From: Candidatus Marinacidobacterales bacterium
Lineage (GTDB): Bacteria > Acidobacteriota > Vicinamibacteria > Marinacidobacterales > SMYC01
Assembly: GCA_965237955.1 (NCBI GenBank)
Contig: OZ250169.1
Coordinates: 5,120,001 to 5,184,000, forward strand
DNA: 64,000 nucleotides
Direction of reading: 5' to 3'
Positions within the stretch are counted from its first letter, which is position 1. Each line of letters starts with the position of its first letter. The notes below the pieces were generated by a model. That model did no database searches. It was not told the DNA's origin and saw nothing but the letters and a program-made list of their open reading frames with translations. A program made the position numbers and the translations under genes. Shown here piece after piece: positions 18,300-21,108 of this stretch.

Positions 18300-19249
18300 A
18301 GTGCGGAAGAGGCTGTTCACGCTTCATGTGTCGGCAACCGGTCGATGGCCGCCGAACCACGCTATCGGGCCTCTTCGGCCTCCCATACCGCGTCCGCACT
18401 GTCCGGCAGAGGGCTCTCTCCCAGGAAACCGTCGTTCCCCGGCCGCCGAGAGGTCGGCGACCAACTGTCCGCCACCCTCGTCGAAGTTCCAATAGCCGAC
18501 CAGACCGGGGGAGTTCGCATCTGCTCCGGAGCTCATAACGGCTCCGATCTGGGCGTCCGGCAGAACGAGGGCCCAGATAGCGGGTTCGTCTATGAGCCCT
18601 GGAAAAAACCAGGTGGGGGGTTCGCGGCCGCCGGGCGGCGGTCCGATCGTGCCGAAGGTGCACCCGATCGACAACACCTGAAAGTTATTCGACGAGGGCA
18701 CGCCTGTTCCATCGCAGCTTGCCCTCCGGTCTCCGTCGACGTAGATACTCAGGGTTCCCGACGCCTCACGCGTGACAGCGACGTGGTGCCAGACATCGTC
18801 TGCCACGAAGAGGTCGCCCCCGCTGCACGAGCCGAGCGGCGTGCAGCTATTCGACGGATAGCAGTAGTTGTTCTCTCTGGAGTCCTCCAGCATGACTTCG
18901 AGGGTCCCATCCGGCAGTACGTAGAGCTGCCAGCTCAGATTGAAGGAGTTGTCATCCTCGCCTCGCGCGATGATAGCCGCCCGCCTACTCGGCGGCGGGA
19001 GCTTGATCCAGGCGCCGAGGGTGAAGACCTCGGTGGGAAACGTGGGGCTGTACGGAACCGTGACCCGGTCGTCGTCGCCGTCGAACCTGAGCACGCTCGG
19101 CCGCCCGGGTCCTTCCGAAACGGTCTCGACAACTGCCGGCGTGGTCTCCACGACCTCCGGTCCGGTTGGCACGGCTTCTTCACCGTCGCCTCCGCACCCT
19201 CCGTACCCTACGTAAAAGACGAGCGCGATTATCAGAAGCTGACCGGAAA

Positions 19250-20634
19250 CTACTTTGCAGCAGCCTCGGGAGTGAGTGTAAAGCCGAGCTTTTCGGCTGC
19301 CTTTCGCAAGCCGTTGATGTGGTTTCGGCGAAAGCGCTCCTCGAAGGCAGATGCACCGATGTCTGTGTATTCGTGACCATATTTGAGCATGCGGAAGACG
19401 AGCTGAGCGAGCTTTCTTGCGGTGGCAAAGATCGCGGTTTTAGCGTCTTTACGTCGGGCGATGCGGCGATAGTAAGCACCAAGTGCGGTCTTCGAACGGT
19501 TGAGTGACAATGCAGCCATGCGTAAGGCACCGGCGATACGGTTGGAGCCGGTGCCATTGGGGCGTTTGTAGAGTAGCTTTCCACCCGAGATGGGGCGGCG
19601 CGGCGCAAGACGGAGCCACGAGACAAAGTGATTTTCACTGGGGAAGGCAGAGAGGTCGAACCCGACCTCGGTGAGTAGGATCGCGGCGGTATCGGGGCTG
19701 ATGCCGTCGATGCGGGTGAGATCGCATCCAGCAAAACGCCACAGTTCGGTTCGCTGTTCCTGCTCGCCGCGGCGCCGCATGGCGCTTTGCTTGTTCGGGT
19801 TCGGATGAGCGGGCACACTGTCGTGTCTGCGCTCGGTCGGCTGAAGCTCGATGACCACTTCACGGATAGACGCTGGTCGTAGAGTTCGATTTCGGCTTGT
19901 AGCACATCGTAAAGGCGCAGCGCCGATGCGAGATTGAAAAGATGCTCGTCACGCCAAGTGCCGGTGAGATGCTCTGCGATTTCGTCTACGCTTTTCTTGC
20001 ATCGATGATCTCGAAACTCGGCGAGCTTCATCGGGTCACGTTCGCCAGAAACGATGGCACGAACGATGAGCATTCCGGTCTTACCGGTAATGTCGGTCAC
20101 CGCACGGTGGACTTGCACGTTCATCTGGTCCAGAGCCTTCTGCATCCATTGGACGGCTTGGCCCCGATGCTCGATTAGTTCTTGACGCTGCCGGTGCATC
20201 GAGCGTAATCGGCAAATCGACTCCCCCGGGCGAAACGAGCCACGCAGAAGTCCGCAGCTGTGTAACGTCTGCAGCCATTGACAATCTTGCATATCGGTTT
20301 TGCGACCCGGAACGTTCTTCAGCTGCCGAGCGTTGACAAGAACGACCTCGATACCACGGGATTCGAGCAACTCATAAACCGGAATCCAATAGACGTGGGT
20401 GCTTTCCATCGCCACCGACTCCACACCTTGCTCGATAAGCCAATCCGCAAGCTCAACCAGCGCCGGCGTTGTCGTGGAAAACACCCGCACGTTCGGCCGA
20501 CCATCAGCTAGCTGCGGACCGCAGACCCAATGCTCTCGACTCCCGAGATCGATGCCCGCTACCATCGGTCGTATCGACGGCAGGGAATTCCGTGAGAGAC
20601 GCTTCGCCGCTTTGCTCTTCCTTCGTTTGTTCAT
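19250..20634 (-). CDS. IS110 transposase/recombinase, frameshifted near 19860
   Basis: DEDD RuvC-like motifs GIDLG, AMESTHVYW, RKTDMQD; C-terminal domain IDGIS..., PISGGK, ATARKLA. Confidence 0.93.
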
Positions 20635-20662
20635 TCGCTCACCTCAAGTGTATTTTGTGAGC

Positions 20663-20880
20663 GAAGGCTCCGGCCCGAGATGGCGATCGAATGGATTCTG
20701 ACCGTGGGGAGTGCTTTCGTTGGAAGCCTCGCCAATGATAGGGAGCCGGCTCGGACCCAAGCTGACCCTGGGGCATCATGCACCAATGACAGTACGGGGC
20801 TCGCTGCCGGAGCCTTCACCGACAACCTTTCTACCAGCTTTGGTAGTTTCCTACTTGATAGGCCCGGCCTCCGGCCGGGG
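20663..20880 (-). ncRNA. Candidate IS110 bridge RNA in the left non-coding end
   Basis: Perfect 12-bp stem 20663-20674/20806-20817, hairpins 20831-20846 and 20863-20879, internal copies of junction sequence; boundaries and expression inferred. Confidence 0.6.
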
Positions 20881-21108
20881 GCGTAGCTGACCAGAGACTA
20901 GGGGAATACGCCTTTGCATGGGATGCGCGCCTCTTCTTTCAGTCGTCGTTTGGCCGAAACCAGCGCGGAAGCTTCAGCCCGAGTTCATTAGACATCGTAA
21001 ACAGCTCGGACTCCCGAAGTCGTCAAGTGTACGCAAAAGTTTTGTCAAGAATGTAAAAGGATGAGTGACGCTGGAGCGGCGCACCAAGAGGGCGTCGTCT
21101 CCACGTCG

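Follow-up and report, generated by a model that had tools for sequence, protein, structure and literature searches.

Which DNA words does the RNA of this IS110 element read, and on which strand of the element's own ends? The question is raised by positions 20635–20892 of a 64,000-nucleotide stretch of a Candidatus Marinacidobacterales genome (hereafter the window), where the initial annotation placed a bridge RNA with two guide loops around a CT core. We compared the element with its copies in the same genome and with relatives elsewhere.

The element, its boundaries and its recombinase

The element occupies 19239..20888 on the minus strand, both copies of its 2-nt core included (1648 bp plus one core), with boundaries aligned in six near-identical full copies. 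It interrupts a LamG-domain gene of 315 aa within the part that encodes the N terminus. The 3' piece of this gene (18324..19240, minus strand) carries a LamG-like domain (PF13385), and the 5' piece (20889..20919, minus strand) continues into it in a frame open for 315 codons when the element is removed; by a reader's judgement, the product is lipoprotein-like at its N terminus. Contigs break off at 19239, and a contig of run X4 holds the uninterrupted allele, an empty site that skips 1648 bases. This contig and the restored host frame indicate a short core shared at the insertion, without further target duplication. A loose contig end in run X4 links the left end to the right end, which fits both a circle and genomic tandem copies.

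The two ends are unequal: the left end measures ~250 nt and carries the RNA region, and the right end is shorter than 15 nt. They share an asymmetric inverted repeat, whose right-end arm (19245..19253, plus strand) overlaps the transposase stop codon and is a perfect 9-bp complement of the left-end arm (20843..20851, plus strand), ~36–44 nt inside the element.

Besides the six full copies, which are at least 99.7% identical, the genome (G000) holds one split copy and a split 76–78% relative. GGTCAG followed by CTACG stands at all seven left junctions of the genomic copies, and the right flanks of the six full copies start with CTT, ATT, GTC, ATT, GAA and ACT. Because the right flanks vary, CT must be the start of the left end, and its presence in the right flank here is due to chance. 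On genomic copies and relatives, the crossover core is almost certainly the AG that precedes this CT on the sense strand (CT on the antisense strand), so that the site is flipped relative to the gene when compared with IS621. It lies at 20887..20888 at the left junction (CT on the plus strand, AG on the element's sense strand) and at 19239..19240 (plus strand) at the right junction, where the genomic copies and the contig breaks locate it; sense-strand AG ends the motif-defined left boundary in 32 of 34 clusters of relatives. The initial annotation had placed a CT core on the sense strand, two bases off. An IS621-like geometry with that core and guides over both sides draws on the GGTCAG-CT that does occur at both junctions of the window copy; we consider it extremely improbable, as CT follows GGTCAG in one of the six genomic right junctions, in 1 of 49 right flanks and in 2 of 34 left ends among clusters of relatives, and as ISPpu9 of Pseudomonas putida KT2440 recombines at AG (PMC12288879).

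The recombinase gene (19250..20634, minus strand; PF01548 and PF02371) is split into two frames in the window copy by two extra bases near 19868–19870. Four of the six copies have this frameshift, and the other two, one of which lies at ~4255.5–4256.9 kb of G000:C1, encode 460 aa, the length anticipated for a long recombinase; with intact copies in the same genome, the frameshift repair once called for is unnecessary. The frameshift is not an assembly error, as runs X2 and X4 yield contigs without an indel relative to the window at 19868–19870. The frameshifted copies, more numerous than the intact ones, have probably spread in trans. Programmed frameshifting was considered and ruled out, since the extra bases are missing from two copies and no slippery run was noticed.

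An N-terminal DEDD RuvC domain and a C-terminal Tnp domain with a catalytic serine place the protein in the IS110 family; D29, E77, D114 and D117 are invariant, and S349 nearly so, in 60 sequences. The intact copy yields a predicted fold with a pLDDT of 88.8, whose best structure matches are IS621 and ISCro4 (PDB 8wt6 and 9t56; Foldseek E 6e-13, TM 0.52/0.72). In the PDB search, full-length alignment matched the recombinase with IS621 and N-terminal alignment matched none. Relative to IS621, the alignment and the predicted fold show ~95 additional helical residues between the domains and an additional C-terminal helix. Intact frames with a median of ~460 aa occur in 90 of loci L001–L100, and the closest named relative (L001, Candidatus Marinacidobacterales) is 97% identical over the C-terminal half.

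A predicted two-loop RNA and its target

Covariation was assessed in a set of 144 elements. Genome loci contribute 20 and metagenomes 80, the best of 396 matches; 28 come from a search of 301 genomes of the phylum and a viral scan (three duplicates of G000 copies excluded; the scan gave one locus, unparsed), and 16 are G000 copies. Structural anchors parsed 122 elements; most of the other 22 have a truncated left end or belong to the most distant relatives. Clustering at 85% RNA identity gave 52 clusters, each represented by one member, and scores were compared with 5000 permutations. A second parse supplied the loop-2 5' guide of three elements, and that of two was left out. Search patterns for the loop-2 3' guide and the right end favoured an AG ending, which leaves those two positions without test value. 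The left arm was taken to be whichever GAAAC-like word best matched the right arm, which makes arm covariation (303 vs 268) partly circular.

The predicted RNA body spans 20655..20825 on the minus strand. Its outer stem (20806–20817/20663–20674), a perfect 12-bp pairing within a 20-nt inverted repeat of 85%, closes a three-way junction from which two arms with one internal loop each emerge, a multibranch fold unlike that of IS621, as had been suspected. The minus strand of 20635–20892 folds at -107.5 kcal/mol (z -2.6; 4 of 200 shuffles equally good), and an RNAalifold consensus of 36 sequences shows compensatory change in 17 of 40 pairs. CCAATGA, previously seen in both units (20732–20738 and 20783–20789), is a loop-to-stem scaffold. 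The reading of the left end as a structured two-loop RNA was sustained by the consensus and by covariation of its guides, and we regard the locus with very high confidence as a real bridge-RNA locus of the ISPpu9-like clade.

Within the window, no Rfam family reached its gathering score, and one chance match lay nearby. A scan of 20500–21100 for sigma-70 promoters and terminators gave no match; with no terminator called, the hairpin of the left end is not a recognisable terminator. An extended -10-like word at 20828–20836, just upstream of the outer stem, recurs in relatives by eye and could be an internal promoter, by analogy with ISPpu9; the consensus scan did not call it. No left-end RNA was seen in the contigs of the four RNA runs from one study, which hold 3' gene parts only, plus a 39-nt piece of a relative's left end; they weigh neither for nor against the RNA.

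Each loop has two guide strands. The initial annotation had noticed two words, AAGCTGACC at 20759–20767 (identical to 19236–19244) and CTGACCG at 20698–20704 (identical to 19239–19245), and took them for the two guides. Both identities exist, and the proposed test, covariation of loop words with flanks among homologues, was borne out across the 52 clusters: one word tracks the flank and the other the right end. They are, however, only the 3' guides of each loop, and the unit of AAGCTGACC, matched at the time to the right junction, reads the left flank instead. Its equality with the right junction is by chance, and since CT stands at one of six right junctions, the leading AAG of the 9-nt match is a property of this single insertion site.

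By covariation, loop 1 reads the target canonically, with a strict 7-nt guide (the core plus five bases) and a lax one of up to ~4 nt on the opposite side. The strict guide is the loop-1 3' guide GGGUCAG (20762..20768, minus strand; right-target in IS621 terms), which scores 233 against its left flank vs 150.6 ± 6.1 permuted in 37 clusters, each position matching in 28–35 of the 37. Its target half in the window (20887..20893, plus strand) matches at six of seven positions. The loop-1 5' guide (20787..20795, minus strand; left-target), short and lax, pairs with the right flank beside the core (124 vs 90.8 ± 8.0 in 49 clusters, p 0.0004 overall), at positions 4–7 only, those nearest the core. 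A reading of a TAGTTTC-like motif upstream of targets by the loop-1 5' strand was dropped, as by eye it did not track in other families.

The dinucleotide CU that follows guide 1 (20760..20761, minus strand) agrees with the two bases that open the left end. Across 37 clusters it follows left-end positions +1 and +2 (38 vs 26.1 ± 3.4, p 0.0006), with 16 wobble-type mismatches vs 1, and does not track the right flank (p 0.70). By these comparisons it behaves as a handshake with the donor, like that of IS621.

Natural reprogramming is extensive: the 52 clusters contain 35 different target guides, and the 78% relative in the same genome has another target guide and a correspondingly different flank. 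The target guide GGGUCAG and the donor guide CGGUCAG are one base apart, which allows the element to target others of its kind and so make tandem arrays. Copies lie directly after a relative's right end at 4911k and 5054k of G000:C1 and in L040, L059, L065, L067, L103, L114, L123 and L130.

Several side observations concern targets. A weak preference for T (23/33) and C (22/33), 10 and 8 bases before the junction in 33 clusters, falls on the positions held by the arm in the donor and is probably a protein-read motif. A second family in G000, at 55% protein identity, has 10 copies with aligned left ends (G000:C1 541k, 632k, 1172k, 2285k, 2887k, 2893k, 3066k, 3174k, 3883k and 7941k), a target guide AACUAAG and a donor guide UUAGGAG; several of its copies have identical left and right flanks, as if the family targeted one end of a different repeat element. 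The family of L002, L019–L021, L024, L027 and L138 has near-perfect 14-bp palindromes as targets, with the guide word as their right half, and the L009–L017 family is inserted in short CAGTG-type tandem repeats of Terriglobia genomes.

Recognition of the donor

The loop-2 3' guide CGGUCAG (20698..20704, minus strand; right-donor) reads the donor half at the right end (19239..19245, plus strand), which it matches at seven of seven positions here and tracks across 47 clusters (312 vs 231.7 ± 8.8 permuted). The loop-2 5' guide (20736..20744, minus strand; left-donor) ends in a conserved CA, like C130-A131 of IS621, and does not match the canonical site beside the core (33 vs 31.5, p 0.36, n=36). 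No handshake signal was found for the donor loop (25 vs 23.2, p 0.33). The 5' guide matches instead a distal word at +23 to +31 of the left end (20856..20864, plus strand), whose sense sequence CCTATCA at 20856–20862 is identical to the guide. Same-strand agreement between guide and distal word scores 282 vs 210.2 ± 7.2 in 46 clusters, with a permutation maximum of 238; the loop-1 5' guide, used as a control against the same word, gave p 0.06. From this covariation, the loop-2 5' guide very likely reads the distal word on its own strand. The 12-bp donor proposed earlier for a recombination assay would therefore omit most of what the covariation indicates.

The register of this match is set by the arm. 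At 5 nt from the arm the mean match peaks at 5.7 of 7, and elsewhere in the sense strand it reaches at most 2.5. Measured from the core there is no peak (at most 2.4), since the hairpin that separates the core from the word varies in length and the core-to-word distance ranges over 20–28 nt in 33 of 34. In the window it is a 7-bp GC hairpin (20863..20879; -8.7 kcal/mol as DNA). In 34 of 46 clusters it is predicted to begin after 6–8 unpaired bases and to end at the word; its z-scores, with a median of -1.4 and values below -1 in 33 of 46, are modest, and in 12 of 46 the predicted fold lies elsewhere.

The word could resemble the guide as a mere by-product, for example of local duplication or gene conversion, with the donor recognised by the 3' guide and by protein contacts to the arms alone. 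The right end is indeed highly conserved, half-match activity exists, and tests on independent pairs in the tree are underpowered (2–4 pairs each, too few for significance; position 3 changed in both directions). Set against this, the likeness holds from 100% to ~47% protein identity, through many different words and in a fixed register, and shared ancestry alone should not bring a guide nearer to its own word than to that of another element. On a protein tree of 46 rows, ~33 of 49 guide changes coincide with a change in the distal word; the figure is 20 of 49 for a control column that changes more than twice as often. Mismatches of the G-to-A and U-to-C type, which would wobble on the CT strand, outnumber the opposite type by 20 to 3 with spacers of 4–6, and by 21 to 11 with the spacer fixed at 5 (p 0.11). 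We therefore find a by-product improbable.

The same mismatches bear on the strand of the RNA. In ISPpu9 the equivalent region yields a ~180-nt antisense RNA, the abundant Asr9 (PMC8450116), and the guide here might likewise be an antisense transcript of the left-end region. This is very improbable: the tolerated mismatches fit a sense RNA both at the handshake and at the distal word, conserved stems have their G–U pairs on the sense strand, and the loop ends map to those of IS621 in sense.

Fifteen plasmid loci were held out. Four of them parsed, with scores of 5, 5, 4 and 5 of 7 (19 vs 12.4, p 0.04); by eye, the fit is good enough in L135, L145 and L147 and poor in L134, L136 and L140. An AA core, together with a longer donor loop, is present in ten of the 15, and the match of guide and distal word is ambiguous in this subgroup. 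The AA-core subgroup (L104, L134–L136, L140–L143, L145, L148 and L149) has ~8 extra bases in the donor loop and a target guide of six A's, and inserts where a host frame ends in a run of A's, which we take to resemble an IS3 frameshift site.

How can both donor guides match the same strand? Since they do, it is the CT strand that both would pair with, at sites ~25 nt apart in the circle junction. We propose, with a probability of roughly 0.6, that what is recognised as donor is a single DNA strand in a fold-back, and that this folded donor is probably the excised strand alone. IS621 and CazIS110-1 excise mainly one strand (10.64898/2026.08.31.748434, 10.1101/2025.10.25.684509), and the recombinase here may similarly produce, by copying out, a circle of the CT strand alone. 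Such a circle lacks the strand that a canonical left guide needs, and the fold-back would supply that strand in cis. At the circle junction, pairing of the two 9-bp arms would close one side and the GC hairpin the other. Between them, in IS621 register, would lie a mismatched bubble of ~14 nt, in which the distal word would replace the missing bottom strand. The donor, opened in advance, would be joined to a double-stranded target by one-strand transfer and then fixed by replication; for the four frameshifted copies, movement in trans is likely. The same substrate would arise if a supercoiled double-stranded circle extruded a cruciform.

Modelled junctions are consistent with the fold. Folded as a 68-nt piece without shuffles, the window junction pairs the 9-bp arm at -15.1 kcal/mol (P 0.99), and over 44 modelled junctions arm pairing has a median P of 0.92, exceeding 0.5 in 34. 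The modelled fold sets the word opposite the core in the register of IS621 (5 nt, 2, then 7); position 8 is complementary in 41 of 46 and position 14 in 31 of 44, and positions 2–7 are mostly not. Engineered mismatches at positions 2–5 have been used in structural work on IS621 to promote guide pairing (PMC13626964). As to the strand, hairpin energy slightly favours CT (-6.4 vs -6.1), and arm mismatches, with nine G.T on the AG strand vs two on the CT strand, favour folding of the other strand. A ~20-fold preference of CazIS110-1 for a double-stranded donor at one junction speaks against a fold-back.

The main rival keeps the donor in duplex DNA. The distal word and the arm would form a separate inverted half-site, where the ribonucleoprotein would dock to assemble the excision complex or to repress the promoter of this region; read on the sense strand, it consists of a canonical left-donor match, a pseudo-core and the arm, and the hairpin would serve something else. 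A half-site of this kind predicts identical covariation, again in a register of 5 nt from the arm, and recognition of half-matches is documented for IS621. ISPpu9 adds to its case. Its circles are transposase-dependent, its promoter is internal, with no promoter at the junction, and deletion of the A or the B box abolishes circles; mutation of the A-box inverted repeat leaves them normal by PCR (PMC12288879). The hairpin is thus dispensable for excision there, and the authors suggest that the palindrome may act in integration. A half-site leaves unexplained, however, why a variable hairpin starts 6–8 nt past the core and ends at the word, and why the canonical left-donor match beside the core is missing; moreover, the variation in core-to-word distance amounts to most of a turn of the helix. 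As an account of the covariation the half-site does as well as the fold-back, as one of the hairpin it does not, and we judge it unlikely. Returning to the fold-back, we lean towards extending it to the whole long-recombinase ISPpu9-like clade, which is widespread: the donor would be a self-folded single strand with both donor guides reading that strand, the hairpin and the asymmetric repeat would pre-melt the site, and only the excised circle would be the full substrate.

Relation to known systems

The strandedness of IS110 circles, single or double, is disputed in the field, as is the way in which a guide for one strand could be satisfied when only the other is present. The ISPpu9-like clade offers an answer encoded in sequence, and one that would explain the puzzling A box of ISPpu9. 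Folded single strands are the recombination substrates of integron attC sites and IS200/IS605 ends, as we propose here; those systems use tyrosine or HUH enzymes and protein- or DNA-directed recognition, without a separate guide RNA. If the proposal is true, the element inserts single-stranded cargo into double-stranded targets in one direction and under RNA guidance, and a single-stranded-donor recombinase with built-in directionality would differ from IS621 and ISCro4 as a tool. Its target specificity is short, seven strict nucleotides plus a few lax ones. Screens that rebuild donors from short core windows (25 nt in 10.64898/2026.10.21.760802) would largely miss the loop-2 5' guide and could mis-score the clade; the divergent bridge-RNA models that supplement that paper may include it. 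A search of the non-subscription literature found no paper on a fold-back donor for IS110.

ISPpu9 and MITEPpu9 resemble the window element in their AG crossover, A and B boxes, long 5' non-coding end, tandem modules and circles. The A box of ISPpu9 (43 nt with an inverted repeat, beside a 16-nt B box; PMC12288879) has the same order as here: AG, 6 nt, the hairpin, the word, 5 nt and an AAAC arm. We assign the element to the ISPpu9-like clade on its AG crossover, a left box of ~43 nt with a hairpin, a 16-nt right box and a long recombinase. The ISPpu9 cluster row in the supplement of PMC11208160 shows the same RuvC-domain motifs, judged by eye and unaligned. ISPpu9 targets REP repeats, which carry the palindrome on their right side as well, whereas the targets of the window element are dispersed. 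In the sections of PMC12288879 and PMC8450116 covered, the guides of ISPpu9 are unmapped and no fold-back is proposed.

Other relatives are more distant. ISPpu10, of a different protein clade, also adds a DNA stem-loop to RNA pairing and has a strict right and a permissive left guide, but its stem-loop lies in the target as an added gate, whereas here it lies in the donor and repositions the guide's site (10.64898/2026.03.19.712850). ISCARN28, ISAzs32 and ISHne5, for which diverse RNA models are published, were set aside as members of other protein clades. The IS1111 group shares sub-terminal inverted repeats, of 11–13 bp near both ends and with the RNA downstream of the gene; the window element has repeats of 7–9 bp at unequal distances from the core, 5 nt at one end and ~35–45 nt at the other, and its RNA lies upstream, which places it outside that group.

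With IS621 and ISCro4 (IS622), the element shares the RuvC and Tnp fold, two loops with the target loop first, a CT core and a 14-nt register (PMC11208160, PMC11208158). In IS621, too, the 3' guides end in AG plus two bases and the 5' donor guide in CA; its 3' guides pair across the CT core into the bases that follow and are succeeded by the handshake bases (PMC11208158), so the top strand of IS621 corresponds to the antisense strand of the window element. The two systems differ in their RNA, whose arms are here joined in the three-way junction under the outer stem, and in the distribution of specificity, which here is a strict 7 nt for the right-target guide and lax for the left, and in IS621 is 9 nt left and 4 right. 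They differ above all in the donor: the left-target guide pairs with the opposite strand beside the core, as in the geometry of IS621, and the left-donor guide does not, reading instead, on a site flipped relative to the gene, the distal same-strand word.
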